The position numbers and the translations under genes are program-made. Positions 15,223-41,152 of a DNA stretch of 64,000 nucleotides are shown here, piece by piece. This DNA is from a bacterium. GTDB taxonomy: Bacteria; Eisenbacteria; RBG-16-71-46; CAIMUX01. Positions within the stretch are counted from its first letter, which is position 1, and the number at the start of each line of letters is the position of its first letter. Below the pieces are notes generated by a model. That model ran no database searches and was not told the origin of the DNA. It worked only from the letters and a program-made list of their open reading frames with translations. Location of the stretch: contig JAUIHP010000008.1 of NCBI GenBank assembly GCA_030431975.1, positions 44,318 to 108,317 on the forward strand, in the 5' to 3' direction.

Positions 15223-15224
15223 GT

Positions 15225-22847: not shown

Positions 22848-22856
22848 GGTGGGCAC

Positions 22857-23022: not shown

Positions 23023-23037
23023 CTATGCATGCTTCTG

Positions 23038-25614: not shown

Positions 25615-25626
25615 TACCCCACCTTC

Positions 25627-26424
25627 CTAAAACTTCAGACGGAGACCGACGCGCGTCCGGTCTTCGTTCCAGTCGGCGGCCATTCCCAGATCGGTGCCCG
25701 GTTTCTCGGGCAGGGCTCCGCGATCCATGGGCGGCTGCGTTTGATACCCCTCGGGACCGTTGAAGAGTGCGTCGAGGAAAGCGATCCCATAGATTGCTGC
25801 GGCGCCGAGCATGGCCCGCTCGACGTTGTCGAAGGCGTCATTGGCTTCGCGGTCACGCTCTTCCAGCTCGGCCCGAAGCACAGGAATGGCATTGATACTT
25901 CGCGACTCCCGGTAGACTTCCGCGACGCGGTCGAAGTCGTCGACCTTGTCCTGATAGATCTCCCAGAAAACATAGACGCCGATAAGAGACAGGCCCTGCG
26001 CCACGGAGAACGCAGTGCCCCGCGAGGGCTTCTCGTTGTAACGCTGGCCCCACCCCGGCAGGAGAAGGCTGCGACCCGCCGCAGCAAACCGCGACTTCTT
26101 CCGCAGCTTGATGTGCAAATCCTGAACGCCACTGGGCCCCAGAACCATCTGTCGGGTCCACGGCGAGTAGCCGGGAGCCCAGGCCCGGACCAGGTACAAA
26201 CCATCCAGGGGACGGAAGACACTCCAGGGCGTCGTTCCCACGAATTCGTACTGACCTTTGACCTCCACGGTGACCCCAGGCGGGTCCGAGGTCACGGAAA
26301 GATACGGAAGCGAGGCTCCCTCCAGGAGGAGCGGGTCCTCCTGGGCCGCGGCGCTTCCCGCGACGGTCAGGGTCACGATCCCCAAAAGGATCCACAGTCT
26401 TCTCAGCATCCTTGCCTCCACCAT
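25627..26424 (-). CDS. PEGA-domain envelope protein
   Basis: Signal peptide, VTSDPPGVTVEVKG...VGTTPW (PEGA), LLLPGWGQRYN motif, C-terminus RVGLRLKF (OMP-like terminal Phe). Confidence 0.7.
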   Translation of the reverse strand: MVEARMLRRLWILLGIVTLTVAGSAAAQEDPLLLEGASLPYLSVTSDPPGVTVEVKGQYEFVGTTPWSVFRPLDGLYLVRAWAPGYSPWTRQMVLGPSGVQDLHIKLRKKSRFAAAGRSLLLPGWGQRYNEKPSRGTAFSVAQGLSLIGVYVFWEIYQDKVDDFDRVAEVYRESRSINAIPVLRAELEERDREANDAFDNVERAMLGAAAIYGIAFLDALFNGPEGYQTQPPMDRGALPEKPGTDLGMAADWNEDRTRVGLRLKF

Positions 26425-26569: not shown

Positions 26570-27226
26570 CTAGGCCTTCTCGTTCCAGTAGTCCGCCTGG
26601 GCCTGTCCTTCGCCGCGGATCAACGTCCACGGTGTCAGCACGAAGACCTTGGCGTCGAGACCAAGCGAGACGCTGTCGACGTACTCGACATCGGCCCGAA
26701 TCCGAGCCGGCCAGTCGAGGCTCTTGCGTCCCCGAATCTGTGCCAAGCCGGTCACGCCCGGTTTGACCAGCAACCGCCTCTTCTGAAAATCATCGTATTG
26801 TTCGACCTGATACTCCAGCGTCGGCCGCGGACCAATCAGGCTCATCTCTCCCTTGAGGATGTTCAGGATCTGCGGCAGCTCGTCCAAACTCGTGGCGCGC
26901 AGCAGCTTCCCCATCCGCGTGACGCGCGGATCCCCGACTTCGACCAGGGCTCCGGCCCCCATCTTCGCGGCCCCGGGGACCATACTTCGGAACTTGTACA
27001 TCCGAAAGAGCTGCCCCATCTGACCGACCCGCTCCTGCACGAAGAAGGCCGGCCCCTTGGAGTCCAGCCGAACGAGGATGGCCAAGAGCAAGAAGAGCGG
27101 CCAGATCAGACACAGGACGAAGAACGCGAAAAGCCGGTCGAGCAGCGGCTTCAGGAACCGCGGATAGAACCCGGACGGAGGAAGCTGGCCCAGGCCGCCC
27201 GATTGCGCGGAGTGTTCCGTGCTCAT
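26570..27226 (-). CDS. small monotopic phosphoglycosyl transferase (bacterial sugar transferase, PglC/WbaP-C-like)
   Basis: [28 protein letters not shown] (re-entrant helix), [43 protein letters not shown]. Canonical motifs are intact. Confidence 0.92.
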
Positions 27227-27870
27227 GAGTCCCTCCGTTTGCGGTCGACGACACGGGCCGGGACCCCGAAGGCGGTGGCGCCTGCGTCCAAGTCTTCCAA
27301 AAGGACCGATCCGGGTCCCAGTTTCGATTCCGCCCCGAGTGTCTTTCCGGGTACGACGACCCCGCCCAACCCGATGAAGCTGGCTTCCTCCATCCGGACG
27401 AATCCGCCGAGATTGGCCCCGGGGCCGACGGTGGCAAACCCAGCCAGCTGATTGTCGTGTCCGACCGTGGCCCCCAAGTTAACGAGGGTGTGCGCGCCAA
27501 GACGGGTGGAAGCGGCAATGACGACCCCGGCGGCGATGACGGATCCGGGTCCCACTTCGACGTCGGAGTACAAAACCGCCTTGGGGTGCACTGCGGTGGC
27601 GTACTCCACGGAATGCGAAGCGAGGCGTTCCGCGATTCGTCGCCGCGGCTCCGGGTCTCCGACCCCAATGATGAAGTGGCAGTCGGTCCATTCCCCCGCC
27701 TGCTCGATGGTTCCAAGGACGGGCACGCCTGCAACTTCCGAACCGGCGCGTTCCGGAGAGTCATCGAGGAACCCGCGCACGTCGGTGCCGCCGATGGCTT
27801 CCCGTGCTCTCAGGATTTCCAGGACGCCCCGACCGTGGCCGCCGGCGCCGACGATGATGACGTCTTTCAC
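27223..27870 (-). CDS. NeuD/PglD-family sugar N-/O-acyltransferase (hexapeptide)
   Basis: Start at GTG 27870 (SD GGAAAGG 7 nt upstream): KDVIIVGAGGHGR, GFLDD, then hexapeptide repeats. GTGA overlap with the ACP stop and ATGA overlap with the PGT start. Confidence 0.85.
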   Translation of the reverse strand: MKDVIIVGAGGHGRGVLEILRAREAIGGTDVRGFLDDSPERAGSEVAGVPVLGTIEQAGEWTDCHFIIGVGDPEPRRRIAERLASHSVEYATAVHPKAVLYSDVEVGPGSVIAAGVVIAASTRLGAHTLVNLGATVGHDNQLAGFATVGPGANLGGFVRMEEASFIGLGGVVVPGKTLGAESKLGPGSVLLEDLDAGATAFGVPARVVDRKRRDS

Positions 27871-28121
27871 GACTTGGCCTTTCCTTCGACGAAACGGATG
27901 AGGCCACCGAGGCTGCCGAAGTTCTCTTCCCCGATTTCGTCGTCGCGAATCCGGATGTCGAAGCGGCCCTCGAGATCGCCGATGAGCTGGATCATCTTCA
28001 GCGAGCTGACGCCGAGGTCGCGAAGGTTCTCGGACGCGTCGCGGCTGGGATCGAGGTCGCGCGCACAAATCTCGGAAACGATCCGGGTCACTTCGTCCGC
28101 AGGGTGGTGGGTGCTGGTCAC
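27867..28121 (-). CDS. acyl carrier protein
   Basis: 84 aa from GTG 28121 (SD GAGGAAGGA 7 nt upstream). Phosphopantetheine-site motif DLGVSSLKMIQL. Hidden inside a longer spurious ORF (27867..28562) in the track. Confidence 0.8.
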   Translation of the reverse strand: MTSTHHPADEVTRIVSEICARDLDPSRDASENLRDLGVSSLKMIQLIGDLEGRFDIRIRDDEIGEENFGSLGGLIRFVEGKAKS

Positions 28122-28135
28122 GATGAAGTCCTTCC

Positions 28136-29458
28136 TCAGACGTGTTCTTTGGCCCGTTCCGGGGCGATCGGAGGCTCGACCGATTCCGAACCCGACTCCG
28201 ATGTTTCCTGGATCCCCGTATCTTTTCCCGTTAGTCCGCCGAAGACCCGAAGAAGAGTCTCCGCCTGCCGGGGCCGGTAATAGTGCTCGAGGACGAAGTC
28301 GCGGCCCTTGTTGCCTACCCTGTTTCTTTCTTCGGCGGACAGCGCCGCAACCTCGCGAAGCTTCTCGGCGAGTGCGGGACCGTTCTCGGCCGGCGTGCGC
28401 CAGCCTCCCTCGGAGACCTTGAGCATGCGGTCCATCTCTCCTTCCCCTGCGGCAACGACCACCGGTACACGGGCCGCCATGTAGTCGAAGATCTTGTTGG
28501 GAAGGGTCTGCCGGTTGTGCTCGTGTCCGCTGGCTGCAATGAGGGCAATGTCGGAGTGGCAAATCGCGGCGAAGGCGTCTTTTTTGGGTAGCGCGCCCAG
28601 AAAGTGCACGTTGTCGAGACCGTAGTCCCGAGCCTGGGCTTCCAGCCGCGGCCGGTCATCCCCGTCGCCGACAAAGACGAAGACGAAGCGAGGATCGTCT
28701 TTCAGTGCCCGCGCCCCTTCGACCAGGGTCGAAAGGTCGTTCCAGATCCCGTGAGCTCCGACATAGAGGCAAATGATCCTGTCCCCACGCCCTTCCCGGA
28801 ACCGCGCCAATGGGTTCTGGTCGGCGAAGGCGTCCGGATCCATCCAGTGGTCGACCCCGTTGCGGACGAGGTCCAGTTTGTCCTCGGGTACACCGTGACC
28901 CAAAATTCCTTCCTGAATGCCTTCCGTCACGGCGACCAGGTGGTCGGCCTTTCGGTAGAGGAACTGGGCAAGAGACTGCGTCCGCGAGACCCACTTGGGA
29001 TCCTTCATGACTCCCGCGGCGACGGCAGCTTCCGGCCACAGGTCCCGCAGCTCGAAGACGAAGGGCACCCGAAACCGTCGGGCCAGGACGTAGCCCGGGA
29101 CGCCGATGCTGAGCGGCGTGCTGGAGGCGAAAACGACATCCGGACGCTTGCGCACCGAACCGATGAGGGACGCGTGCGCGGCGTAGCTCCCGAAGAAGAG
29201 GAGCCGCTTCTTGAACGAGCCTTTGAAATGCCGGTAGACCCACAGACGATAGAGTTCGAATCCGTCCTCGTGCTTCCGCTTGGAATAGGTGCGGAAACGG
29301 TCGTTTTCCATGGCATCGCCGGTCTTGTAGTTGACGTTGCCGGTCAGGACGGTGACTTCGTGGCCGTGCTCGGCCCAGGCCCGCGCGAACTGATAGTGCC
29401 GGCTGGATCCCGCTTCGTCGGGGAAATTGAAGTACTGCGTGAGGTAAAGGATTCTCAT
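28136..29458 (-). CDS. GT4-family glycosyltransferase (WcaI/WbuB-like)
   Basis: MRILYLTQYFNFPDEAGSSRHYQFA N-terminus typical of WcaI-like GT4, and an E-x7-E region (EGEMDRMLKVSEGG). Confidence 0.85.
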   Translation of the reverse strand: MRILYLTQYFNFPDEAGSSRHYQFARAWAEHGHEVTVLTGNVNYKTGDAMENDRFRTYSKRKHEDGFELYRLWVYRHFKGSFKKRLLFFGSYAAHASLIGSVRKRPDVVFASSTPLSIGVPGYVLARRFRVPFVFELRDLWPEAAVAAGVMKDPKWVSRTQSLAQFLYRKADHLVAVTEGIQEGILGHGVPEDKLDLVRNGVDHWMDPDAFADQNPLARFREGRGDRIICLYVGAHGIWNDLSTLVEGARALKDDPRFVFVFVGDGDDRPRLEAQARDYGLDNVHFLGALPKKDAFAAICHSDIALIAASGHEHNRQTLPNKIFDYMAARVPVVVAAGEGEMDRMLKVSEGGWRTPAENGPALAEKLREVAALSAEERNRVGNKGRDFVLEHYYRPRQAETLLRVFGGLTGKDTGIQETSESGSESVEPPIAPERAKEHV

Positions 29459-30951
29459 CCCTTGTCCTCCAACGCATTGCCCGAAACGACCTCAGTCTGT
29501 CCCAAACTGGGTCGGACCCGGCCGTCCTGGACGAGGGTCACCCATGCCGCCCCGGCCAGTTGGTTGCTAAGATTGGCGACCAACTCACGTTGATCCCGGT
29601 CCAGCCGGACATTCTTGGGCGGCGCCAGGCCGAGGATGGCAAAGCAGACCTCGCCGTTTCGCAGCTCCGAGAAGTGGCGGAATCCATGCTCATCGACCAG
29701 GTCGAGGTTTTCGACGATCGCGGGCAGGTCGTCAAAGGCTCCGGGCCGGGCTGGTGACACGACGACGTTGCCGTCCCGTCGGATCAGGCGGTAAAGCGGA
29801 TTTCCTTCATCCAAGGCTTTCAGCGGAACGCTTCCCGTCGTCACCGGTTCGAGCTTGCCGGGGGCTCCGTCGGCGCTCGGAATCCAAAGAGAGAGTGCGC
29901 TCGGACCGAGCAGATCCTCGAGAATTCGCTGCAGTCCGCGAATCAATTCCTCAACCGGCCGTCCCGGGACCAGCGCCTGATTGGCACGGGCCCATTCTTT
30001 GCGGAAGTCCCAACGCGACGCGTAGAGATTGCGTTCGAATCGTTCGCTCAGCGGTCGGCGAAACGCCGGGACCAGAGAGAGCAGGGCAAAGATGAGAAGA
30101 AGAGTGGTTCCTCCGTACCGGAACCAGGTCAGACCGCGGTCGGGAAAGAACTGATGCACGATCTGCCCCGTTGCCGCCAGGGCGACGAGGAAGAGGCCGA
30201 GGCCGAGCAGAAGCAGGCTCGAGGTCCGAAGCGCCGCCGACTCCGGCAGGTTGCCGGTCGATGACGAACGGGAGAGCAGCAGCGGCCAACTCGCCACCGA
30301 AGTCGGGACGAGGACCAGCGATCCCAGAGCGAGGAGTTCCATGGGGAGCGCGCCGTAGAGCAGAAGCTGACTCGTGACCAACACCAGCGCCGTTCCGGCG
30401 AAAAGGGGCCCGAAGACCGCACGACTGAGCCCGTCGAGCCCGGCGCGTCGGGCCGCGCCCACCACGGCCTGCAGCCGAACGATGGAGTAGCAACCGACCA
30501 GCAGCAAAGCCACCGCCGTGGCCCTGGCCGGGCCGGGCGCCAAGGCAACGACCAGTTCCCCGTCGGCCCGGTTCAGGATTCCCGGTCCGGAGGAACTCAG
30601 AACCCACGCGAGCAGAAGAGCTCCTCCCAGCGAAGCCAGAAAGATCGCAACCGGTCCTCCGTCGGCCGTGTGCGAGGTCGCCTGCCCAAAGCGGACAGAG
30701 AAGATCGCGATCAGCGGAACGACGAGAACGACGGTGAAGAGGACCGTGCGTTGGAACCAGGCTTCGCGGGCCAGTGGGTGCTCCCCGAGCAAAGCGGAAA
30801 GCCAGGCCAAGGCGACCCCGATCGCGAGATAAAGCACGCCCATGGCCAGGCGGCCGCGGGGATGACCCCGCCCGACCTGAGCCAGGACGGCGGTCAGTGC
30901 GACCGCGCCCGAGGCGATCAAAGGAGCCGTCGATCCCAGGGCCCAATTCAT
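29455..30951 (-). CDS. PrsK-like polytopic membrane sensor with C-terminal GAF-like domain and no kinase core
   Basis: Trimmed to ATG 30951 (ATGA overlap with the upstream stop). About 9 hydrophobic helices, then RWDFRKEW and GEVCFAILGLAPP...LDRDQRELV, resembling the juxtamembrane and GAF part of PEP-CTERM-system kinase PrsK. The ORF stops where a HisKA domain would begin, and the next gene starts by ATGA overlap. Confidence 0.6.
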   Translation of the reverse strand: MNWALGSTAPLIASGAVALTAVLAQVGRGHPRGRLAMGVLYLAIGVALAWLSALLGEHPLAREAWFQRTVLFTVVLVVPLIAIFSVRFGQATSHTADGGPVAIFLASLGGALLLAWVLSSSGPGILNRADGELVVALAPGPARATAVALLLVGCYSIVRLQAVVGAARRAGLDGLSRAVFGPLFAGTALVLVTSQLLLYGALPMELLALGSLVLVPTSVASWPLLLSRSSSTGNLPESAALRTSSLLLLGLGLFLVALAATGQIVHQFFPDRGLTWFRYGGTTLLLIFALLSLVPAFRRPLSERFERNLYASRWDFRKEWARANQALVPGRPVEELIRGLQRILEDLLGPSALSLWIPSADGAPGKLEPVTTGSVPLKALDEGNPLYRLIRRDGNVVVSPARPGAFDDLPAIVENLDLVDEHGFRHFSELRNGEVCFAILGLAPPKNVRLDRDQRELVANLSNQLAGAAWVTLVQDGRVRPSLGQTEVVSGNALEDKG

Positions 30952-32492
30952 GAACCGGAGGGATCCTTCAGTTGCTCGATGAGCTGGGAAGCCTGCGACG
31001 AAATGGGAAGATCCGGATACCGGGAACGGAGTCGTTCCAGAATGGCCACCGCACCGGCGGGGTCCTCGAGTTCCTGGCCGCGGATGTTGGCGGCTTGCAG
31101 GTATGCGAACGGAGAGCGGCGGTCGCGCGGGTATTGCTCCGCCCTCTCGATCAATGTGTTCACCGCGTCCTCCCAACGTTCCAGTCGGACCCAAACGTCC
31201 ACCAGGTGGTCCAGGGTCGAAAGGTGAAGGCCCGACTGCGTCGGATCTCCCGCGGCGTCATCGATGATACGCCGATACTCGCCCGCCGCGCGAAGGAGTT
31301 CTGCCCGCGCTGCGGCCGGGTTTTGGTCCGTCTCGTAGAGATTGGCCAGCTCTTTGGGCGCGAGAAGCCCGGACTGGGTCCGTGGGAACTGGTTGGCCAC
31401 CGAACGATAGCGGCGCACGGCCTCTTCGGTCCGTCCCTGCGTTTCGTAGACCTTGGCCTGCAGAAACTGCGACTGGGACACGAGGTTGATGTCGTGCATG
31501 TACAGATCCTGAACCTTGTCGAAGGTGGCCAGCGCGGAGTCGATGAGGCCGGCCGCCCGTAGGGCGATCGCGGCCTGCATGAGGGCGCCGCCGGAGCGGG
31601 CGTCCCCCGCGTAGTCCCGGTGCAGTTCGAGGAAAAGTTCGGCCGCTCCCAGCGGATCCTTCCCGACCTGCAGCCGCATGTTGGCCTGCGATTCCATGAT
31701 GGAAGGGATCATCGACTCGGCCGCTTCGGCCTGCCGCGCCTGGGTCAACACGGCATCGGCGTCGGCCGGTCTCCCCTGCAGGATGAACGCGTTGGCCTTC
31801 TGCAGCAGGGCGGCGACTTCCGCCGTCGTGCCGCGATGTTCCTTTGCGATGTCGTCGTAGAAAACGTGAGCCACCTCGAGTTCGGCTTTGGCCTCCGAGC
31901 CCTTCCCGATCGCGTCCAGGATCTCCGCTTTCTGGGTCGGCGCCTCCAGGACCAGCGGAAGGGGCTCGCCGTCCGGGTCGACGGGGGGAAGGATTTCGAC
32001 GACCTCGTCCAGAAGGCCCACGATGGCGTCCGGACTTCCGAAGTCCCGGTTGAGCTTGAGCAACTCCGCGTAGACCCGGGCCGTCACCGGTACGTCCCAG
32101 GGCGCCTGACGACGCACCTCATGCAGGGCGTCGATGGCTCCCGTCGAGTCGCTCAGGAAAATGATCCGCATGCGGGAAAGCCCGAGCGCGGCAGATCCCC
32201 GAACCTGTCCGAGAAGCTGAAGTTCGGCACTGTCTGCGGCAACGGCCTCCAGCGGAAAGTCGTCCAGAACCCGGCGGTAGGCGATCGATGCCTGCTCCGC
32301 CTGCGGCTGGGCCGCCTCGGGTTGCGAGTTGATCCGCCGCTCGAGTTGACGGGCCTTCCACAGGGCTCTCTCCGCCTCGTAGCGAACGGTGAGCGGTCCC
32401 CCCTCCCCGCAGGCAGAGAGCAGGAGGACGCCGACCAAGCCCCAACCCCAGAGACGACGAAGGCACCATAGGCGGTTCACATCTAGGCCCAT
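30948..32492 (-). CDS. TPR-repeat lipoprotein (PrsT-like, shorter)
   Basis: Trimmed to ATG 32492: MGLDVNRLWCLRRLWGWGLVGVLLLSAC lipobox. Multiple TPR-like A-x-Y/A-x-A helices (FLQAKVYETQGRTEEAVRRYRSV, FAYLQAANI). Confidence 0.7.
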   Translation of the reverse strand: MGLDVNRLWCLRRLWGWGLVGVLLLSACGEGGPLTVRYEAERALWKARQLERRINSQPEAAQPQAEQASIAYRRVLDDFPLEAVAADSAELQLLGQVRGSAALGLSRMRIIFLSDSTGAIDALHEVRRQAPWDVPVTARVYAELLKLNRDFGSPDAIVGLLDEVVEILPPVDPDGEPLPLVLEAPTQKAEILDAIGKGSEAKAELEVAHVFYDDIAKEHRGTTAEVAALLQKANAFILQGRPADADAVLTQARQAEAAESMIPSIMESQANMRLQVGKDPLGAAELFLELHRDYAGDARSGGALMQAAIALRAAGLIDSALATFDKVQDLYMHDINLVSQSQFLQAKVYETQGRTEEAVRRYRSVANQFPRTQSGLLAPKELANLYETDQNPAAARAELLRAAGEYRRIIDDAAGDPTQSGLHLSTLDHLVDVWVRLERWEDAVNTLIERAEQYPRDRRSPFAYLQAANIRGQELEDPAGAVAILERLRSRYPDLPISSQASQLIEQLKDPSGS

Positions 32493-33340
32493 GCCGCGTC
32501 TCCTTCCTCGGCCCGTCGCGCGCCATAGATTCGGATGATCGAACCGATGATGACGAAGTTGACGAGGACATAGATCAGGACCGCGCCTCCGATCATGGCC
32601 CCGACCAACTCCGGCGAGAGGCTTTGCACGACCCGGTCCGCTCTCCGCAGGACGAAGGACGTCGGGATCTGAAGCAGATTGGGAATGAAGACGACGAGCA
32701 AAGACGCGATCGGATACCGACCCAGGAACGCAAATCCCTGCCCCCATGCTTTGGGAACGGAACTCCCTTCGAGCAGCAGAAAGACGGGCGCATAGATGAA
32801 GAGCGACTCGATGAGGACCTGAAGGGCGAACGTCGAGTAGCGGATGAGACGAACCTGGTTGCCGGTCAGATCAGGCGAGTCGGCCCACAGCTTGGGCAAC
32901 TGCCAGGCCAGGGCGTAGAGCAACAGGATGAGAGGCAGTCGTACCAGCAGCAAGGGTAGGTACCGCTTGGCGACGACGGAGAACTCGTTGGGCCCGGTCA
33001 CGGCCTGCAGCTTCCGATCCGGATGCCGCCAGATGATGACGAGCGCCACGCCGATGAAGAACGTTCCGGCCAGAAAGTCGACCACGAGGTTGGTCTGCGA
33101 GAACAGCCCCGGGAGGGCGACGAAGAACTGCGGATAGTGCAGAACAGCCGGCCCTCCCATCCGCTCCAGAAGAGGGGCCAGGATCTCGACGAGACCGGGA
33201 CGGTAGAACTGCGAAAGCAGCAGGAGAACCAGTCCCTGCACCAAACCGAGGAGCAGGAACGGACGCCAGATACGCAGACGGCCGAGGTCGCGCAGACTCT
33301 CGACCCAGGCCCACAGGGCCAGGTTGATCTGGGAGAGCAA
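32483..33340 (-). CDS. polytopic membrane protein of unknown function
   Basis: 285 aa with about 6-7 hydrophobic segments and no motif I recognise. Embedded between EpsI and the TPR lipoprotein, with a 10-nt overlap downstream. Confidence 0.6.
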   Translation of the reverse strand: MLSQINLALWAWVESLRDLGRLRIWRPFLLLGLVQGLVLLLLSQFYRPGLVEILAPLLERMGGPAVLHYPQFFVALPGLFSQTNLVVDFLAGTFFIGVALVIIWRHPDRKLQAVTGPNEFSVVAKRYLPLLLVRLPLILLLYALAWQLPKLWADSPDLTGNQVRLIRYSTFALQVLIESLFIYAPVFLLLEGSSVPKAWGQGFAFLGRYPIASLLVVFIPNLLQIPTSFVLRRADRVVQSLSPELVGAMIGGAVLIYVLVNFVIIGSIIRIYGARRAEEGDAAWA

Positions 33341-33364: not shown

Positions 33365-33997
33365 TTAGGCCGGTTCTTCTGGGAAGAAACTCGGCAATAG
33401 CGGTGCGAACTCGCCGACCATCCGGTCGATCCACGAGCCGGCGGTCTTCTCGTCCGGGATCTCCAACGTGGAGATCCGGACAAAGGCGCCGAACGAACGG
33501 TTTTCCCGCAATCCCTGTAGGAACATCTGATCCCGAAACGTCCGGACTTCAGCCAAAGCCTTCTGGCCCGCTGTGTACCAGAAGTAGTTCACTTTCTCCA
33601 CCCGATCTCCGCGCACCGCCCGGAAGCGTTTCATCGGAACCGGGCCCAATGCAGTCTCCAGGGTCTCGTCGGGCAGAAACTCGACTTCGAAACCCTGGGA
33701 TTGATAGCAGAGAATCGGATCATGTGCACCGAGACGTGCATTTTCGAAGTACACGACCATCAGCCACAGCGGAACGCCGTCCGGTCTCTCGTAAAGCCTG
33801 GATAGAAACGCGTCCGCGGCAAGGTCGTCGACGACGGTCTGATCCAGTCCGAGTTCCGTTCCCGGAAGCCCGGCCAGACTCGCGGGGCAGGTCTCCAGGT
33901 GCGTCTCCCCCATCGATGTCGGAGGAAGAAGCGCCACGTACGCACCGAGCCCGAGCAACAGAAGCAGGGAGAAACCGATCTTGGCGCGGCTCAGCAT
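33365..33997 (-). CDS. EpsI-family exosortase-associated protein
   Basis: N-terminal anchor and HDPILCYQSQGFE (H-x-P-x2-C motif of EpsI). Its start overlaps the exosortase stop by 7 nt. Confidence 0.8.
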   Translation of the reverse strand: MLSRAKIGFSLLLLLGLGAYVALLPPTSMGETHLETCPASLAGLPGTELGLDQTVVDDLAADAFLSRLYERPDGVPLWLMVVYFENARLGAHDPILCYQSQGFEVEFLPDETLETALGPVPMKRFRAVRGDRVEKVNYFWYTAGQKALAEVRTFRDQMFLQGLRENRSFGAFVRISTLEIPDEKTAGSWIDRMVGEFAPLLPSFFPEEPA

Positions 33998-34974
33998 CGC
34001 AGCAACCTTTGCGCAAGGAACAGAAGGCCGAGTGCCGGAACGAGCATGACGAGTCCGCCGACATCATGGAAAAGCCCGGACGCGGTCTCTGTGTCGATGA
34101 TGGCGGCGACCAGACAAATCGAGGTGATCCGGGCCACGTTGACGACGACCGCGATGGGAAGCGCCGAGGCAAAGAGCAGAAGCCGCTGCCACCAGGAACC
34201 TTTGCCGAAGTATCCGAAGATCGCGCCCAGTGCCATGAGGGCGATGAGATAGCTCATCCCGCTGCAGGCATTCTCGACGGTGAGTTGGCCGCTCGGAAAG
34301 TAGAGGTCCATTCCACGCTGGACGACCGCGGCTCCCATGGCCTGGGACAGCTTCACCGAGTAGTCGGCTGCGACCTCCTTCAGACGAAAGCTCACGCCGT
34401 TCATGAAGATGGGAAGAGCCGGCACCATGAAGAGCAGAAAGACGATCGGAAAGGCGACACGGCGCAGGATCCGCGCGCCGAACCAGGTCCAGACCAATCC
34501 GGCGACGGTCAGGACGAAGGCCCACCCTTGAAAGATGGTCACGTCGCCGCGAATTCCGATGACCTGCAGAAGAACGCCGGCGGTCAGGAGCGGCAGCCCA
34601 AACCACGACGACTGCATGGGCGTACGAAGAAGATCGTCCCTCCGGTGCCAAACCAGAAAGATGGAGAGCGGAAGAACGAAGAACCCGTGCGAGTAGTTGT
34701 CGTTGTTCCACCAGGCCAGGACCAGCGCATGAAAGGTTTGATAGAAACCCGCTGCCAAAAGAAGGATGGCAACCAGTCCGGCCGGCTGAAACCACTTCGG
34801 GATATCCACGCCCGGCCGCGGTTCGTCGGCTCGATTCGTTCCCTCGCCCTTGCCGCCTTCTCCCTTCTTTTCTGTCGGTTTCGGGGACGCCGCGGGCGCG
34901 GCCGGTCCCTTGAACCGGTCGGAAACCGCGGGCCCGGCCGCGGAGGAGAAGTTTCCTGACGAGGCGCTATCCAC
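33991..34974 (-). CDS. exosortase (EpsH/Xrt family)
   Basis: WWNNDNYSHGFFVLPLSIFLVW, catalytic-Cys region ENACSGMSYLIAL, VVVNVARITSI. About 8 TM segments. The N-terminal ~55 aa are a G/K/P-rich extension, so the true start (GTG 34974) is uncertain. Confidence 0.88.
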   Translation of the reverse strand: MDSASSGNFSSAAGPAVSDRFKGPAAPAASPKPTEKKGEGGKGEGTNRADEPRPGVDIPKWFQPAGLVAILLLAAGFYQTFHALVLAWWNNDNYSHGFFVLPLSIFLVWHRRDDLLRTPMQSSWFGLPLLTAGVLLQVIGIRGDVTIFQGWAFVLTVAGLVWTWFGARILRRVAFPIVFLLFMVPALPIFMNGVSFRLKEVAADYSVKLSQAMGAAVVQRGMDLYFPSGQLTVENACSGMSYLIALMALGAIFGYFGKGSWWQRLLLFASALPIAVVVNVARITSICLVAAIIDTETASGLFHDVGGLVMLVPALGLLFLAQRLLRC

Positions 34975-37174
34975 GCGCCTGCTTCCTGTTCGAGTAGTTG
35001 TAGCCGTAGGACTTGTAGCTGTAGTAGTACGGCAGCGCGGAGGTCACGTCGTTCAGGAGCACCCCGGCCAGGTTGTCCCGGAACTCCTTCTGCATCTCGA
35101 CGCTGCGTCGAACCATCTCGCGCGGCGTCACGCCGGCCTTGACCACGATGAGGACTGCGTCGACCTCCGGTCCGATGACCAGAGGATCCGGAACCGGCAG
35201 GTTCGGCGGAGAGTCGATGATGACCCGGTCGAAGCGGTTGCCCAGTTCGTCCAGGAACCACCGGACCCGGTCCGTCGTGATGCACTCCCCGACTTCCTCG
35301 TCACGGACCATCGGCAGAATGGTCAGGTTCGGGCGGATCCAGGTCTGACCGACCGACTCATTCCATTCACGACGCTGCAGGATGGTTCCGACGTGGCTCT
35401 CGCCGACCTCGAGACCAATCTTCGCGGCCACGGTGGGGCGGCGAGCGTCCATGTCGACCAACGCGATTCGTTCGTCCGACAGCTCCTTGGCCATGGTCAG
35501 CGCCAGACACACACTCGCGGTGGACTTTCCTTCTTCGGACCGCGCACTCGTCAATAGGATCGAACTCGGACTTTCGTTGCCGTAACGAAGCAGTGCCAGT
35601 GCGCTCTTTCTGAACTCCTGATAGCCCGGAGAGTCGGCGAGAAATCGCTCGAAGGCCGCGCGTTGCTTGTCCGGGTCCCGGCCGTCCGAGGCGATGCCTT
35701 CCAGCTCCGGAATGGTCCCGACGACGCGCACTCCGATTCGTTCCTCCGTCTCTTTGATGTCACGCAGGGACTGATCGTGCTGTTCGAGCACGAACGCCCC
35801 GAGGACACCGAGAACGAGACCGCCAATGAAGGAGAGGATGATCATGGGCGTACGACGCGGCTTCACCGGCTTCAGCGGATGCTGGGGCGGATCGATGACG
35901 GAGATCTTCTCACCCGCGGAGCTTTCCTCCAGAGCCAGCGAGAACTGCGCCGTGGTGATCTGCTGTTCAAAGGCCTCGAAGATGCGTCGTGCCTGCTCGA
36001 CTTCCTGGACGAGACGATTCTCTTCCAGGCTGGCCCCGGGCATCGACGTAACCGATCCCTGGTACTTGCGGATCTCCCGGTCGAGCTCGGCCGCGCGCGT
36101 CTGGGCCAGTCGCATCTGCACGCTGGCCGCCAGATAGTCGAGAGCGGCCGGGTTGGGAGCTTCCTGGGCCGCAGCCGCGCGAGCTTCCGAAACAAGGCGG
36201 GCCAACTGAATGGCGAGGTTCTCCGGAGACTGGTCCCGCGAAGCTCCGAGGAGACTTTGACGGACGTACTCTCTTTCCAGGTTCTCACCGCGTGAAACCA
36301 CAGCGCCGAGGGCACCCGAACGGAGCTTGGCGTCGAGGCTCTGCGAGGAAACACCCATCCCCTGTCCGGCGGCCTGCGTTGCCTGGCCGCCGAAACGCGC
36401 GATGTCGGCGCGAGCCTGGCGACGAAGTTCGTCGGCTTCGGAGAGGTTGTCCGGGCCAACCAAGCCCGGCGTCACCGAACGCGAGGCCTGGCCGCGACGG
36501 AAGCGTTCGAGGCGGGCCTCCGCTTCGTCCAACTCTCGCTTGGCATCGAGCAACTGCGTCTGACCGAACTCTTCACCGACGCGGATGGCTGCCGTTTGGG
36601 AACGACGATTGGCCTCGATGATTCCGACGACGAGGTTGCTGACCAGCCGGTAACAGCGTCCGGGGTCATAGTCGTTCGCTTGGACAATGATGCGATTGTC
36701 GTCCTCGGCGCGGACCCGGATGACCTGACGAAGGGTGCGATGGAGACGCAGCTCGACCAGTTCGTCCACCGTCAGGTCGGGATACTTCTTCTGGTTCTTC
36801 TCGGCCCAGTTGCGGGTTGACGTGTCGTTACGCATTCCCGTGGCGTCGATGACGCTGTTGAGGAAGTCGGCCGACTGGATCTGCGTTTCCATTCGCATCA
36901 GCCGTTCCTGCAACGACGGGTTGGTCACAAAGGGTTCGAGCTGACGGTTGAGCTGGGTGGGCAGCTCGACCATGAGAGCGGCAGAGCACGAATAAACCGG
37001 CTTCATGATCCGCGGCATGGTGACGACGATGCCGGCGATTCCGGCCAACAGGGTCGGCACGATGACCAGCCACTTGCGGCGCCAGAGCAACTGGAGATAG
37101 GCCCGGAGATCGACCGTCTCCTTCATCGGAGGCCGTTGCTCGGCGGAAGCGTTCGGATATTCGGGGTTTTGCAT
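34967..37174 (-). CDS. polysaccharide co-polymerase / BY-kinase (Wzc/GumC/EpsF-EpsG-like fusion)
   Basis: Wzz-type N-terminus (LRAYLQLLWRRKWLVIV), long coiled-coil periplasmic region, second TM, Walker A SARSEEGKST, A-prime LVDMDARRP, Walker B VIIDSPP, Tyr-rich tail LPYYYSYKSYGYNYS. Confidence 0.9.
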   Translation of the reverse strand: MQNPEYPNASAEQRPPMKETVDLRAYLQLLWRRKWLVIVPTLLAGIAGIVVTMPRIMKPVYSCSAALMVELPTQLNRQLEPFVTNPSLQERLMRMETQIQSADFLNSVIDATGMRNDTSTRNWAEKNQKKYPDLTVDELVELRLHRTLRQVIRVRAEDDNRIIVQANDYDPGRCYRLVSNLVVGIIEANRRSQTAAIRVGEEFGQTQLLDAKRELDEAEARLERFRRGQASRSVTPGLVGPDNLSEADELRRQARADIARFGGQATQAAGQGMGVSSQSLDAKLRSGALGAVVSRGENLEREYVRQSLLGASRDQSPENLAIQLARLVSEARAAAAQEAPNPAALDYLAASVQMRLAQTRAAELDREIRKYQGSVTSMPGASLEENRLVQEVEQARRIFEAFEQQITTAQFSLALEESSAGEKISVIDPPQHPLKPVKPRRTPMIILSFIGGLVLGVLGAFVLEQHDQSLRDIKETEERIGVRVVGTIPELEGIASDGRDPDKQRAAFERFLADSPGYQEFRKSALALLRYGNESPSSILLTSARSEEGKSTASVCLALTMAKELSDERIALVDMDARRPTVAAKIGLEVGESHVGTILQRREWNESVGQTWIRPNLTILPMVRDEEVGECITTDRVRWFLDELGNRFDRVIIDSPPNLPVPDPLVIGPEVDAVLIVVKAGVTPREMVRRSVEMQKEFRDNLAGVLLNDVTSALPYYYSYKSYGYNYSNRKQARG

Positions 37175-37205: not shown

Positions 37206-38246
37206 CTAATTGTTGTTCTCGTCGTCGTTGTTCGTCAGCACGTCACGAATGAGGATCAGATTGAGAAGATCCCGCGATGCGTCCAGCGTCCCGCGAAGCG
37301 CGGTCAGCGCGACCTGTGCGACGTTCGGGTCCCGTATCGGGACATGGATCGAGTCACCCGGGCGAATCTCGGGTCCGCCGCGTCCGCTCTGCAGTTCGCG
37401 TTCCAGGTCCACCCTCATGAGGAAGGTGCCCCCGCTCTGATCGGCGGCCAGGACCTCGATCTCGTTCCAGTTGGCGACCGGAGAAAGGCCCCCCGCCACC
37501 GCCAAAGCCTGGAAGAGGGTCATGTTGGAACTGACTCCGATCGGGCCTGACGCACCGACTGCGCCCATGACGTAGGCCGAGCCGGCTCCCAGTCCGCCAC
37601 CCACTCCGCCGCCGACCGCGCCCGCGCCGCCCGGGACGATGATGAGGTCGTCGCGCTGCAGGCCGGGCAGGCCCCTGAGGTCACCCGTTTCCACAGCTCG
37701 GGAAATGTCGACCGGGATCGTCCGCTGAGCGTCCCCATCCCTACGTACGATACGGACGCCGGAAAGGTCCGCCGTCGGTCCCAGTCCGCCGGCCTGTGCC
37801 AGCAGGTCCATGATCTCCGGGATCTTTTCGAATGAGTAGCGGCCGGGACTGGCCACTTCTCCGGCCAGGAAGACCTTCTGGCTGTTGAAGGCAACGACGC
37901 TGATCGTGACCTGAGCCGTTCGGCGCAGGTTGTTGTAGATCTCACGCTCCAGATCGCGGGCCAGGGTCGTGGTCGTCTTCCCTGCCGCCATGACATCTCC
38001 CAGCGGCGGGAAGCTGATCGTCCCGTTGACACGCACGACCACGGTCCGGCTGAGCTGCGGATTCTCCCAGACGCTGACGCCCAGGACGTCGTCGGGGCCG
38101 AGCACGTACTCCTCGTCCGCGCGAGCCGATCCCGCCAATCCCGCCAAAAGGAGAGTGACGAACGTGCAAAGGCCGACGAGAACCTGCAGCGGTCTCCAGC
38201 CGTTCCACGAGGCTTGATGCGATGTGCTTTCCCTAGCCGCAATCAT
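37206..38246 (-). CDS. polysaccharide export protein (Wza/EpsE-like: Poly_export + SLBB)
   Basis: Trimmed to ATG 38246 (ATGA overlap). Signal peptide, then YVLGPDDVLGVSVWENPQLS...VNGTISFPPLGDVMAAGKT. Confidence 0.88.
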   Translation of the reverse strand: MIAARESTSHQASWNGWRPLQVLVGLCTFVTLLLAGLAGSARADEEYVLGPDDVLGVSVWENPQLSRTVVVRVNGTISFPPLGDVMAAGKTTTTLARDLEREIYNNLRRTAQVTISVVAFNSQKVFLAGEVASPGRYSFEKIPEIMDLLAQAGGLGPTADLSGVRIVRRDGDAQRTIPVDISRAVETGDLRGLPGLQRDDLIIVPGGAGAVGGGVGGGLGAGSAYVMGAVGASGPIGVSSNMTLFQALAVAGGLSPVANWNEIEVLAADQSGGTFLMRVDLERELQSGRGGPEIRPGDSIHVPIRDPNVAQVALTALRGTLDASRDLLNLILIRDVLTNNDDENNN

Positions 38247-40786
38247 TTCTCGACCTTCTCCTCTCCCCGCAGCAGTTGCGGGATCGTCTTTCGGATGGTC
38301 TCCATGTCCATTCCGAGTCCGCCAAATTTTCCGTAGTAGCCGTCGTAGAGTTCGGCCAGGTCGCGGTCTTCGTCCTGGCTGCCGTTGGCGAAGACCTGGC
38401 CCAGCCCCACGAGTCCCGGTCGGCACGAGTGGATGTAGGCCATGGTCCAGTCTTCCGTGTAGCTCGCTTCCTCGGCCAGTCGGGCACTGGGGCCCACCAG
38501 GCTCATCTGGCCGCGAATCACGTTCCAGAGATAGAGGACGCGGTCCAAACGCCAGCGACGCATGAAACCGAGCAGCGCCTTCTGACGGCCGTTGGGCTGT
38601 CCCTCCGACTGAACGCGGTAGCAAACGAAGATCGGTCCGGGAAGGTCGCGTTGGCGACGGTCGTTTCCGCGGCGGTCGATCGGAATGGCGGCGCCGTCCT
38701 CACCCCGCCGGCGACGGTCCTGCCTCCGGCGATTTCGTCCCAAACGCTCTTCGCGAACGAAACGGACCCGAGCGGATCCGGCCAGGCGATAGAGCAGCAG
38801 GCTGAGGAGAACGACCGGCATCAGGAGAAGGAGCAATCCGCCCGCGACCGCGACGTCGACGAAGCGTTTGACCTTGGGCTCCTTCTTCTGCCGGCGCACC
38901 CTACGCCGGTCCGGAGCCTCTTCGCCGAGAGTGACCGCTTCCCGCTGGTCCGGAAGCTGCGCGACCTCGATCTGACGGTACTCCGGAACAAGGGTGCCGA
39001 GCCCCTCCCGAAGTTCTTCGGCGCTGGCGTGGTGAGCCATGGCCACCAGTTGATCGACCTGCTTGCGGACGGACTCCGGCTCGACCGGATCCAGTTCCCA
39101 GTGGAAGATCTTTGCGTGCTTGGTCATCCGGGTCTGTTCGGAGTCGGAGAGCAGTTCCTCTTCCAGCTTCTCGCCCGGACGCAGACCGATGAAGCGAATG
39201 GGAATGTCGATGCCCGGACGCAGTCCCGAAAGCCGGATAAGCTGTTCGGCCACGTCGACGATGCGAACCTGCTCGCCCATGTCGAGGACGAAGACGTTGC
39301 CGCTCTCGCCGAGAAGTCCCGCCTGGATGACGAGCTGACTCGCCTCCGGAATGGTCATGAAATAACGGCGCGCTTCCGGATGGGTCACGGTCAGCGGGCC
39401 GCCTCCGGCAAGCTGACGTTTGAAGATGGGCAGCACCGAGCCTTCGCTTCCCAGTACGTTTCCGAAACGAACGGCGCAGAACTTCGTGTTCGACTTGCCG
39501 TCCATGGCCATGCCCTGAAGCACGATTTCGCAGGCGCGTTTCGACGCCCCCATGACGTTGGTCGGATTGACCGCCTTGTCCGTCGAGACAAGGACGACGG
39601 TCGCCACGCCGTGCCGGGCCGCCGCCTGGGCCACGTTGCGGGTGCCGTGAATGTTGTTGAGGATCGCTTCCCGCGGCGCGTTCTCGAGCAGGTTGACGTG
39701 CTTGTGCGCGGCCGCGTGAAAGACGAACTCCGGCTCGTGGATGCGCATCAGTTCGTCGACGCCGAACTCGTCCTTGACGTCCCCGACGGCGTAGAGCACT
39801 TCCAGCTCGCCGTGGTGTTCCGCCATCTCGAGACCCAGATAGGTCAGGCGATTCTCGTTGTGGTCGACGGCGACCAGCTTGGCCGGTTTGAACTTCGCGA
39901 GCTGGCGGCAGAGTTCCGAACCGATGGAGCCGGCAGCGCCCGTCACCAGAACCGTCTCTCCCCCGATTCGGTGGGAGATGCCTTCGAAGTCGACGGAGAC
40001 GGGATCACGTCCGAGGAGGTCCTCGATCCGGATCTCGCGGACCTGGCCGAGAGCGCCCTTGCCCCGGGTGTAGTCGGAGAGCGCGGGAACGGTACGGCAG
40101 GTAACGCCCGCTTCCTGGCAGTAGGTCACGATCTGTCGGACGAGCCCGGCCGGCGCGGATGGGGCCGCAATCAGGACTTCGTTGATCCGCCGCTCTTCGA
40201 TGAGATGAGGGATGTCGATCATCGCGCCGAGAACGGGCGTGTTCTGAATCTTCCGTCCCTTCTTGGCCGGGTCGTCATCGACGAAACCGATCGGGGCTTC
40301 CTGCCGCCTCTGCAGCTCGTTGGCCAGCGTGGCTCCGACATCGCCTGCCCCCGCGATGAGCACCCGCCCGTCGCTGGGAGCGAACCGGCGTCCCTGCGCG
40401 TTGCGGAGCATCTTCCACATGAGACGGCTGGCCAGAATCAGGCCGGTTCCCAGCATCCAAAGCAGGATGACGACGCTTTTGGGGAACGGCTGCTGGCCCG
40501 GAATGAGGTTGAGCAGGAAGACAACGAAAAACCCGAAGAACATCGTCCGGAAGATGGAGAGGAACGTCGAGGTTCCGGCGTATCGCCACAGGGTCCGGTT
40601 GACTCCGCTCAAGTTGAGCAGGATCAGGATGCCAAGGATGTAGAACGGGGCGACCCGTCCATACGAGTCGAGAAAGCGTGCGGGGATGTCACCGTCGAAG
40701 CGGAGCGCAAGCGAGGCCACGCCAGCGGCCGCCAGGAGCCCCGCGTCGATTAGATTGAGAACGACAAGTTTCCATCGGCGCGTCAA
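38243..40786 (-). CDS. fusion: membrane-anchored PglF/CapD/WbpM-like UDP-sugar 4,6-dehydratase + C-terminal degenerate phosphoglycosyl-transferase domain
   Basis: 4 N-terminal TMs, VLIAGAGDVG, VLVTGAAGSIGSEL, STDKAVNPTNVMGASKR, VRFGNVLGSEGSV (CapD). Then KRFVDVAVAGGLLLLLMPVVLL plus RLDRVLYLWNVIRGQMSLVGPSA (PGT-like, with DE changed to DR and PRP changed to PSA) and an Arg-rich insert RNRRRQDRRRRGED...RRGNDRRQRD. Confidence 0.85.
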   Translation of the reverse strand: MTRRWKLVVLNLIDAGLLAAAGVASLALRFDGDIPARFLDSYGRVAPFYILGILILLNLSGVNRTLWRYAGTSTFLSIFRTMFFGFFVVFLLNLIPGQQPFPKSVVILLWMLGTGLILASRLMWKMLRNAQGRRFAPSDGRVLIAGAGDVGATLANELQRRQEAPIGFVDDDPAKKGRKIQNTPVLGAMIDIPHLIEERRINEVLIAAPSAPAGLVRQIVTYCQEAGVTCRTVPALSDYTRGKGALGQVREIRIEDLLGRDPVSVDFEGISHRIGGETVLVTGAAGSIGSELCRQLAKFKPAKLVAVDHNENRLTYLGLEMAEHHGELEVLYAVGDVKDEFGVDELMRIHEPEFVFHAAAHKHVNLLENAPREAILNNIHGTRNVAQAAARHGVATVVLVSTDKAVNPTNVMGASKRACEIVLQGMAMDGKSNTKFCAVRFGNVLGSEGSVLPIFKRQLAGGGPLTVTHPEARRYFMTIPEASQLVIQAGLLGESGNVFVLDMGEQVRIVDVAEQLIRLSGLRPGIDIPIRFIGLRPGEKLEEELLSDSEQTRMTKHAKIFHWELDPVEPESVRKQVDQLVAMAHHASAEELREGLGTLVPEYRQIEVAQLPDQREAVTLGEEAPDRRRVRRQKKEPKVKRFVDVAVAGGLLLLLMPVVLLSLLLYRLAGSARVRFVREERLGRNRRRQDRRRRGEDGAAIPIDRRGNDRRQRDLPGPIFVCYRVQSEGQPNGRQKALLGFMRRWRLDRVLYLWNVIRGQMSLVGPSARLAEEASYTEDWTMAYIHSCRPGLVGLGQVFANGSQDEDRDLAELYDGYYGKFGGLGMDMETIRKTIPQLLRGEEKVEK

Positions 40787-41152
40787 AGGAGCACTCCTAA
40801 GGGCATGCGGCCTCTCATGGTGCAGTCAGTCATTGTCTCTCTCAGCTCGAGTCAGGTCAAACCCCGACTGGACAAACCAGTGCCGGCCCGGGGCCACCCG
40901 CGGCCACGACGCTTCCCACGTCTGTCTCTTCGTCCGTTGACCGTGTTTTCTTTCACCCAGTTACGCCTCCCGACCCGACTCTCTGAAGGGAAGTCACCGC
41001 GAGAGCGGCTTCCGGCCGTCGGCAGAAAACGGGTATCCCGCAATTATGGCACAACGCCATGTGAGGGCGGAGTTTGGAAAACGTAGCTCAATCAGTTTCT
41101 CATCCGTCCGGCAGTAGGGCTCACCTTGACGGCCCTGCCGGGAGGTTCGAGA

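Follow-up and report, generated by a model that had tools for sequence, protein, structure and literature searches.

What does a phosphoglycosyl transferase (PGT) domain do when it sits at the end of another enzyme and most of its catalytic motifs are gone? This question is raised by a gene in a 64,000-nucleotide stretch of contig JAUIHP010000008.1 from an Eisenbacteria genome (assembly GCA_030431975.1); the whole stretch is called the window below, and positions count from its first letter. The gene encodes an 847-aa protein whose modules are, in order, a four-transmembrane (4TM) bundle, a nucleotide-binding domain of unknown function (DUF), a PglF/CapD-type dehydratase and a C-terminal monotopic PGT fold. 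An earlier note, made from the letters of the window, had described the C-terminal part as a pseudo-enzyme domain retained for another task, or a PGT with altered chemistry. This proved to be the right frame, given that the catalytic Glu is kept in one of 55 relatives and that the domain is under purifying selection. Overall, we favour a C-terminal domain that has no catalytic role and acts as a membrane-interface or ligand-binding module, a reading to which we assign a probability of about 0.5.

Residues kept and lost in the PGT-like domain

The PGT layout read from the letters was borne out by Pfam: Bac_transf aligned with residues 640–839 over profile positions 1–178 of 179 (E 2e-20, 73.5 bits against a cutoff of 27). 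In a phmmer search of the Protein Data Bank (PDB), RRWRLDRVLYLWNV...GPSARL of the fused protein aligned with RSLSLDELPQLFNV...GPRPLL of PglC (8e37/8g1n; E 3e-10). LDELPQ was replaced by LDRVLY and GPRP by GPSA, as the earlier note had it; the alternative of catalytic residues conserved in a shifted register was tested here, and the register was unshifted. The Asp of the catalytic Asp-Glu dyad (D93 of PglC) corresponds to D748 and the Glu (E94) to R749, the Pro-Gln after the dyad is replaced by Leu-Tyr, and the Arg of the PRP motif (R111 in the numbering of PMC12802240) corresponds to S767, so that PRP reads PSA. Passages of the literature describe PRP as the "nucleotide-binding motif" (PMC10186338), list DX12P, K59, R88 and R111 as defining PGT residues, and have K59, R88 and R111 orient the substrates in PglC (PMC12802240). 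In 96 ordinary PGT domains (the count also drew 22 fused rows via phmmer, among which the window's protein is perhaps doubled as P0001 and P0002), the positions around the dyad read D in 100%, E in 99%, P in 99%, Q in 95% and N in 99%; those of GPRP read G-P in 100%, R in 99% and P in 96%; and K, R and M of KFRTM are conserved in 99% each.

The fate of KFRTM is more nuanced. Its second basic residue and Met are lost (Q726, E728), and the counterpart CYRVQS proposed earlier is out of register: the register of YKFRTM is YRVQSE, and K59 of PglC is conservatively replaced by R724 (His or Arg in relatives). The R88 position, five residues before the dyad Asp, is R743, which is variable in the family; the adjacent R744 is invariant in the close clade, and R769, two residues past Ser767 of GPSA, is invariant in that clade only. 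A feature beyond the earlier list is the disappearance of the mobile loop with DPRxT. About 19 residues are absent from the alignments between strand β2 and the next helix, and in the AlphaFold2 (AF2) models this spacing is 4 residues in the fused protein versus 23 in P0388, an intact small PGT. On the other hand, the DX12P of the re-entrant helix is present (D644...P657, with P657 invariant in a 26-sequence alignment), as is the structural Asp (D168 of PglC), which is D815 in ELYDGYY aligned with YDVYY and is conserved at 90% or more in 55 sequences. The structure prediction that had been suggested for the domain gave secondary-structure elements in the order seen in an insert-bearing small PGT that is intact, with the mobile loop missing.

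We then looked across the fused family, in which 59 members were examined; the dyad region could be parsed in 55 and is lacking in 4. The dyad Asp is kept in 53 of the 55. The dyad Glu is kept in one (P0126), the others having R, K, Q, A, H, L or T, mostly Arg or Lys. PRP is intact as RP or KP in 8 members and reads SA, SAH or TA in the window's clade. The loss of Glu is therefore basal to the family, with further losses in the window's clade. Near the dyad, the 55 sequences share no substitute residue family-wide, so the region does not have the look of a conserved alternative active site.

In two further members, P0282 (810 aa) and P0283 (793 aa), the re-entrant helix, the insert described below and the LDR helix are still there, and the chain ends shortly past NV.RGH with a common tail, without MSLVGP and all beyond. 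They lie on contigs of 19.6 and 71 kb. In the dehydratase tree they form a pair (support 100) nested in the fused clade, inside a set of 19 fused rows (97). In this lineage the protein can do without half of the PGT fold, and not without the helix and loop.

An invariant Arg-rich hairpin loop

The Arg-rich insert comprises 34 residues (684–717), not the ~45 first estimated, with 13 Arg, 6 Asp/Glu and a net charge of +7. It had been taken as a sign of degeneracy and turned out to be the most conserved part of the domain. Among 55 diverse fused proteins, 12 positions of the C-terminal domain are invariant, and nine of them fall in the insert (G683, R687, R691, R692, R705, R706, R710, R711 and G717); the others are G765, P766 and P790. 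The core motif [IVL][DN]RR..[DEQNK]RR was found in 60 of 63 dehydratase-containing proteins of at least 760 aa, the exceptions being the variant P0303 and two proteins without any C-terminal domain. In the AF2 model the insert sits in the β1-β2 hairpin loop with a low pLDDT (predicted local distance difference test) of 44–46.

A similar loop occurs in canonical enzymes. P0134 is a PGT with the full catalytic set and carries the loop immediately before FVLYKLRTM. A search with P0134 gave at least 120 small PGTs (270–442 aa), and all 120 listed have a 36–45-aa insert at the same place; the sources named are Schlesneria paludicola, Pirellulales and Planctomycetaceae, of the Planctomycetota. Among the same 120, KFRTM is present in 120, DExPQ in 119 and GP[RK]P in 120. 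As in the fused protein, the insert of P0388, P0134 and their like (270–336 aa) lies between G-x-N and F-x-x-Y-K-F-R-T-M; unlike the fused domain, these PGTs stand alone and are fully canonical. In P0388 the insert is also the β1-β2 hairpin loop (pLDDT 49–59, mean of the model 75), and the model matches PglC (E 1e-13). The strict motif spacing of the fused family is found in only 12 of the 120 listed, so what the two groups share is the loop's position, length and composition and its repeated (D/E)RR triplets. The clade of insert-bearing small PGTs comprises P0377–P0494, P0134 and P0218, with loci L042 and L043, and shorter inserts of 23–25 aa occur in two Gemmatimonadota loci (L044, L050).

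Because canonical small PGTs have a counterpart at the same hairpin position in all 120 listed, the insert is probably older than both the fusion and the catalytic losses. When the insert columns were left out, fused domains (99) and insert-bearing small PGTs (93) were each monophyletic and were not sisters in the tree. A joint clade was not rejected by the approximately unbiased (AU) test (difference in log-likelihood 15.9, p 0.28), which makes a single origin of the loop possible only. A profile dominated by large PGTs (Lg-PGTs) had at first suggested that the Arg-rich stretch is no insertion and that KFRTM and the mobile loop were recoded there in collinear order. This idea was given up, as P0134 and P0388 carry the same loop before an intact YKFRTM; the near-equal length (+8 aa versus Lg-PGTs) results from an insertion plus a deletion.

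Elsewhere in the window's genome, the regular expression for the Arg motif matched only off-frame Arg-rich translations and no other real protein, and no account of this insert in PGTs was found in the searchable literature. A genome scan for neighbourhoods of insert-bearing PGTs returned mostly ordinary PGTs, with a real insert in 4 of 80 loci (the regular expression parsed 34 of the 80); in the same scan a dehydratase lay within 6 kb only beside two ordinary small PGTs (L047, L062).

The dehydratase part is intact

Residues ~1–600 had been described as a complete membrane-anchored CapD/PglF-like dehydratase, and three lines of evidence agree. First of all, Pfam placed CoA_binding_3 at residues 74–234 (E 2.2e-14) and Polysacc_synt_2 at residues 279–562 (E 1.4e-109, 366.2 bits against a cutoff of 20.2). 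Then, Campylobacter jejuni PglF (5BJU) matched the dehydratase part at E 1.4e-80, with the STDKAV stretch identical. Finally, in Foldseek the dehydratase model superposed on PglF with a target-normalised TM-score of 0.93–0.94 and a root-mean-square deviation of ~2 Å. With the full-length model as query, the best 50 Foldseek matches were all short-chain dehydrogenase/reductase or dehydratase structures, and from these the C-terminal fold gets no confirmation.

The motifs are TGAAGSIGS, S401-T402-D403-K404 and M412. T402, D403, K404 and M412, together with T282-G283-x-x-G286-S287-I288-G289, are invariant in the 55 sequences, and the former four correspond to T395, D396, K397 and M405 of PglF, residues named in PDB entry titles. 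The 4TM, CoA_binding_3 DUF and Polysacc_synt_2 order of residues 1–600 is that of PglF (C. jejuni) and CapD (Staphylococcus aureus), from which the fused protein differs by ~250 additional C-terminal residues (linker plus PGT-like domain). We conclude that the first two modules form a complete and active-looking UDP-GlcNAc 4,6-dehydratase of the PglF/CapD type, an activity predicted from motifs and fold. It is the sole strong Polysacc_synt_2 match in the 6.19-Mb genome (369.7 bits; the next has 60.6).

The N-terminal module is shared in kind by large PGTs, and it is by sequence of the PglF type. Its nearest non-fused relatives are 609–670-aa PF13727+PF02719 proteins (E 1e-43 to 1e-35), and no Lg-PGT is among the 120 matches listed in the search with this module. 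Positions 5–241 of NCBIfam TIGR03025 do align with residues 16–253 of the fused protein. The linker between dehydratase and PGT-like domain has a mean identity of 0.32, with pLDDT below 50 at residues 615–630.

The fusion is genuine, fits a single origin and is under selection

The earlier note had asked whether the junction near 38950–39000 might be an assembly or frameshift artefact, and assembled contigs settled it in favour of the gene. A 21,131-nt Logan contig, present in runs X1 and X2, which may be the source samples, spans 38200–40800 with 0 differences, and short contigs bridge the junction in X3 (38953–39114, 0 differences) and X5 (38851–39001, 5 differences). No indels are listed in the contigs of the four runs. 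Uninterrupted frames of 771–1000 aa were found in 16 of the 17 other genomes with the domain; in the seventeenth (G007) the match begins at the contig end and the frame is only 236 aa. Homologs start at the same position as the 847-aa protein.

A database survey of the architecture, also proposed earlier, found the fusion in about 50 protein clusters: 26 by the C-terminal search, and 48 among the 120 matches listed by the N-terminal search. The named sources are Candidatus Eisenbacteria and, in a single case, Ignavibacteriaceae. Automatic names given by the Joint Genome Institute (JGI) already pair "NDP-sugar epimerase" with "glycosyltransferase" for these proteins, the names of clusters with distant members are uninformative, and matches in the ESM Atlas are ordinary Bac_transf clusters only. 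At E ≤ 1e-25 the domain turned up in 18 of the phylum's 206 genomes, in one copy each. They comprise 10 of 12 genomes of family f1, 6 of 6 of f3, 1 of 1 of f7 and the window's own genome; in the 15 other families the domain is absent at this threshold.

In a maximum-likelihood tree of 92 PGT domains, one branch parted 31 fused from 61 ordinary domains (Shimodaira–Hasegawa approximate likelihood ratio test, SH-aLRT, 99), with the window's clade on a further stem of length 1.25; in the dehydratase-domain tree one branch parted 23 fused from 34 stand-alone proteins (99). Both are quick trees without bootstraps, whose ordinary sequences were picked by similarity to the query, and both fit a single fusion event.

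We quantified the selective constraint on each part by the ratio of nonsynonymous to synonymous substitution rates (dN/dS, Nei–Gojobori, 7 pairs). The ratio was 0.069–0.191 for the PGT-like domain, 0.020–0.165 for the dehydratase and 0.17–0.54 for the linker; the pair with least saturation (dS ~0.64) gave 0.069, 0.020 and 0.211, respectively. By this measure the PGT-like domain is under purifying selection close to that on the dehydratase.

What the C-terminal domain may do

Two sets of observations lead us to a non-catalytic domain. The metal-ligand Glu, PRP, Pro-Gln and the mobile loop of the UDP-sugar pocket with its DPRxT are lost. Besides, no alternative residue set is conserved, half of the fold can be lost, and the helix-plus-loop unit is absolutely conserved. 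From these we infer the loss of catalysis, the binding of a ligand and a coupling role, which may be pictured as follows. One inner-membrane protein would comprise three modules. The dehydratase would supply a UDP-4-keto-6-deoxy-N-acetylhexosamine precursor for the polysaccharide of the XrtA-type exosortase operon that the fused gene heads. The third module would descend from a small PGT already bearing the Arg-rich hairpin loop. Its retained DX12P helix, Asp815 and Gly-Pro would serve folding and dipping into the cytoplasmic leaflet, with a partial basic cluster remaining in Arg724 (K59) and Arg743 (R88) plus the dyad Asp. In this way the module would hold the dehydratase by its C-terminal end at the membrane interface, where an anionic membrane ligand may be bound by the invariant basic loop together with what is left of the basic pocket. 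The ligand is most plausibly a polyprenyl (pyro)phosphate species or an anionic lipid, by analogy, because the basic residues at the K59 and R88 positions are kept and a cluster of positively charged residues is described, in part of PMC10859629, as holding the phosphate of undecaprenyl phosphate in PglC. Binding would couple precursor supply to the neighbouring assembly and export machinery. A precedent for control of this dehydratase class by lipid intermediates is the inhibition of the PglF-like CapD by lipid II and UDP-MurNAc-pentapeptide, as stated in a passage of PMC6441080.

The family provides a natural separation-of-function series: intact PGTs with the loop, fused domains with partial motifs, fused domains mostly stripped, and truncated proteins with helix and loop. 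The loop is a testable candidate for a regulatory or lipid-sensing element in PGTs.

Several observations weigh against this reading. A working enzyme would fit just as well with a dyad Asp kept in 53 of 55 members, with basic residues where PglC has K59 and R88 (in P0001) and with a constraint about as strong as that on the dehydratase. The fused gene stands at the head of its operon, and in 10 of 14 syntenic loci there is no other PGT within the 12–20 kb covered (one of the ten, L029, ends at a contig edge). The distant members P0220, P0298 and P0303 retain LP, N, GP(R/K)P and TGLAQV, and P0126 retains Asp-Glu. The AF2 model of the fused protein (mean pLDDT 81.1) has a predicted template-modelling (pTM) score of 0.50, which does not fix the arrangement between domains, and with pLDDT below 50 the placement of the insert relative to the pocket is not fixed either.

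Much of this bears on the main rival reading, which we consider unlikely though worth serious attention: the domain may be a working, non-canonical, metal-independent PGT. Asp748 would be the nucleophile, and the cationic residue at the Glu site would, together with loop Args, hold the diphosphate in place of Mg2+ and of the K/R residues that are gone. In that case the fused protein would make a modified UDP-sugar, load the lipid carrier itself and initiate the polysaccharide of the XrtA operon. The persistence of the Asp, Arg724 and Arg743 at the K59 and R88 positions, the mostly Arg or Lys state of the Glu site, a dN/dS as low as that of the dehydratase, and the motifs of the distant members are as expected for such an enzyme, and so is the position of the gene at the operon head in 14 of 14 loci, only four of which have another PGT. 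The same type of insert beside a full catalytic set in all 120 listed small PGTs indicates that the loop is compatible with catalysis. Nevertheless, the window's clade lacks PRP, Pro-Gln and the entire DPRxT loop, and of KFRTM it has lost the second basic residue and Met; the residue at the Glu site varies and no other pocket residue is invariant, which gives no alternative catalytic set; P0282 and P0283 do without half of the fold; and every genome checked has 3–6 canonical PGT-domain matches elsewhere. If the domain is active after all, it would be the first metal-ligand-free variant of PGT chemistry.

A bolder version of ligand binding, which we regard as doubtful, extends to the canonical enzymes. 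The loop would be a ligand-gated element of a large undescribed PGT clade that senses the polyprenyl-(pyro)phosphate pool or a nucleotide messenger, the fused fold would be a sensor that switches the dehydratase, and PglF-type dehydratases and small PGTs would pair physically. If true, an exosortase-linked polysaccharide would be controlled by this sensor at its first committed step. The fusion would be a Rosetta-stone hint that stand-alone dehydratases of the PglF type pair with small PGTs, and such pairing would explain why the two enzyme classes have the 4TM+DUF module in common.

The earlier note had proposed membrane organisation or substrate channelling between the dehydratase and the small PGT at 26570–27226. 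As a specific partnership, the dead domain would serve as a scaffold that pairs with this small PGT and channels the dehydratase product to it after amination and acetylation. The intact small PGT is real (Bac_transf 204.9 bits; PglC E 1.2e-40), its best solved relative is PglC, the di-N-acetylbacillosamine-1-phosphate transferase, and the pathway looks complete in the window, with the PglF-type dehydratase, a DegT aminotransferase (8889–10013), a PglD/NeuD-type acetyltransferase (27223–28068) and the small PGT. The partnership itself did not hold up across genomes: only 4 of 14 related loci (L034, L035, L036, L038) have a small PGT in the operon, neither of the two same-genus loci has one, and the fused gene is conserved regardless. 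In the same-genus genomes a 50–51% identical homolog of the small PGT lies on another contig or ~870 kb away. PglC is moreover stated, in a passage of PMC10942596, to be functional as a monomer. We therefore judge the scaffold improbable.

Very improbable, in our view, is a basic hairpin loop that acts as the receptor for a soluble anionic signal, such as a cyclic dinucleotide or another nucleotide, with the domain switching the dehydratase. The Arg pairs are invariant, the loop is predicted to be flexible in fused and intact PGTs, as for a loop that becomes ordered on binding, and the genome has 7 GGDEF domains. The (D/N)RRxx(D/E)RR repeat holds RxxD and RxxxR spacings, which we take to resemble those of c-di-GMP binding sites. 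This resemblance is loose, however, and the strict motif occurs in 12 of the 120 listed inserts of intact small PGTs and in no other real protein of the genome. Contig C28 of this genome (G000) has a canonical large PGT (28617–29213) and a GGDEF-domain gene (32121–32585) ~3 kb apart.

Finally, nothing was found that speaks for a fusion created by misassembly or a frameshift, or for the remnant of a decaying pseudogene, and these deserve virtually no credence, with contigs of four runs across the junction without indels, intact frames in 16 of 17 other genomes, about 50 clusters with both Pfam domains and a dN/dS of 0.07–0.19.

Relation to known PGT architectures

With small monotopic PGTs such as PglC and with the catalytic domain of WbaP, the C-terminal domain shares DX12P, the structural Asp, the dyad Asp, Gly-Pro and the order of elements. 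It differs from them in the exchange of Glu for Arg, PRP for PSA and Pro-Gln for Leu-Tyr, in the deleted mobile loop and in the added 34-aa Arg-rich loop. The large monotopic PGTs (WbaP, WcaJ, EpsZ) and TIGR03013 (EpsB_2) also have a 4TM bundle, a DUF and a PGT on one chain; matches of the fused protein to TIGR03025, TIGR03023 and TIGR03013 are weak and far under the cutoffs (161.8 versus 295.6; 70.7 versus 393.4). One chain here unites two enzyme classes whose common N-terminal module was termed puzzling in the WbaP structure paper.

In joining a PGT core to another enzyme of the same pathway, the fused protein is like the Bi-PGTs of O'Toole, Imperiali and Allen, a class described in passages of PMC10942596, PMC10186338 and PMC11626204. 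The partners named there and in part of PMC11257628 are acetyltransferases and glycosyltransferases; those passages mention no dehydratase partner and no PGT half without the dyad Glu. In the full-text literature searched we found neither a dehydratase-PGT fusion nor a dyad-less family nor the loop described; a sequence similarity network survey of 2021 lay outside this search and may catalogue the architecture.

The exosortase operon and its surroundings

The features of the fused gene and its operon are collected in Table 1. The order fused gene, export protein, chain-length determinant/kinase, exosortase, EpsI, an open reading frame (ORF) and a tetratricopeptide repeat (TPR) protein is found in 14 of 14 related loci. 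Behind this conserved order lies a variable stretch, which in the window holds a GT4 glycosyltransferase, the PglD/NeuD-type acetyltransferase and the small PGT. All scores of the XrtA set are below the NCBIfam equivalog cutoffs (export 130.7 against 180, chain length 123.2 against 278.9, kinase 88.4 against 230.7), and judged by these the locus is an XrtA-like system and not a certified XrtA system. Besides the fused domain (75 bits), the genome has four canonical Bac_transf domains (205–238 bits).

Table 1. Positions of the fused gene, its parts and its operon partners in the window
Feature	Positions	Strand	Basis
Whole fused gene: 847 aa, TTG start, stop codon included	38243..40786	-	ORF list, Pfam, AF2 model
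Four transmembrane helices, residues 1-135 (3-29, 36-59, 72-94, 103-133)	40382..40786	-	AF2 model
Rossmann-like DUF (CoA_binding_3), PglF/CapD type, residues 136-260	40007..40381	-	Pfam, N-module search
Predicted UDP-GlcNAc 4,6-dehydratase domain, intact, residues 261-600	38987..40006	-	Pfam, PglF alignment, Foldseek
Linker, low confidence, poorly conserved, residues 601-637	38876..38986	-	Conservation, dN/dS, pLDDT
PGT-like (Bac_transf) domain, residues 638-847	38246..38875	-	Pfam, phmmer, AF2 model
Re-entrant membrane helix with D644-x12-P657, residues 638-669	38780..38875	-	Motif, model helix 638-669
Arg-rich insert RNRRRQDRRRRGEDGAAIPIDRRGNDRRQRDLPG, β1-β2 hairpin loop, residues 684-717	38636..38737	-	Alignments, AF2 model
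D748-R749, site of catalytic Asp-Glu dyad; Asp kept, Glu to Arg	38540..38545	-	phmmer versus PglC
G765-P766-S767-A768, site of GPRP nucleotide-binding motif; Arg-Pro to Ser-Ala	38483..38494	-	phmmer versus PglC
Wza-like polysaccharide export protein (XrtA/PEP-CTERM export family), next downstream	37206..38240	-	Pfam/NCBIfam
Chain-length determinant fused to tyrosine autokinase	34967..37174	-	Pfam/NCBIfam
Exosortase, XrtA model 206.7 bits versus cutoff 208	33991..34974	-	NCBIfam
EpsI-family exosortase-associated protein	33365..33997	-	NCBIfam
PglD/NeuD-type sugar N-acetyltransferase, TIGR03570 185 bits versus 160.8; in 3/14 related loci	27223..28068	-	NCBIfam
Canonical small PGT (PglC-like), all motifs intact	26570..27226	-	Bac_transf, PglC

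The longest ORF of the export protein (37206–38624, reverse strand) overlaps the 3' end of the fused gene by ~380 nt. The true start probably lies near 38100–38200, since homolog alignments begin at about residue 14–42 of the shorter version. A 579-aa ORF (29455–31194, reverse strand) has no Pfam match and is kept in most syntenic loci; its product matches only positions 6–347 of the model for the XrtA-system histidine kinase PrsK, the N-terminal membrane part (2.4e-10), and has no kinase domain. Downstream of the operon (18760–26424, reverse strand) lie genes for a PEGA-domain protein, an 858-aa protein of fibronectin-III (fn3) repeats and a 1056-aa β-propeller/dockerin-like protein. The PEGA and fn3 genes are kept in 12 of 14 syntenic loci, and the three proteins may be exosortase cargo.

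A second sugar-nucleotide block (6365–16334) includes epimerase/dehydratase genes at 6365–7414, 12015–12992 and 15225–16334 on the reverse strand. It also holds the DegT aminotransferase at 8889–10013 (-), for which the best NCBIfam model is PseC (250 bits, below the cutoff), and genes for a hexapeptide acetyltransferase (10107–11159), a GFO/MocA oxidoreductase (11002–12048) and a UDP-sugar 6-dehydrogenase (13035–14330) (-). We take this block to resemble the WbpA/B/E/D-type pathway of a di-N-acetylated uronic acid. The DegT enzyme may also serve a PglF-type pathway.

At 2–3092 (-), 35 kb from the operon, are a PAS histidine kinase and a sigma-54 response regulator, the latter scoring 383.5 bits with the PEP-CTERM-box regulator model (cutoff 502.6). 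No sigma-54 -24/-12 site was found upstream of the fused gene at 40787–41125; matches in the window number 37, where chance would give 43. In the sister family f2, the exosortase loci (L040, L041) are composed of exosortase, EpsI, a polysaccharide deacetylase (DUF3473), TPR and a PrsK/PrsR-like pair, with no adjacent dehydratase, PGT or export gene, so that they carry no information on what the fusion replaced. The L040 locus adjoins type II secretion genes.

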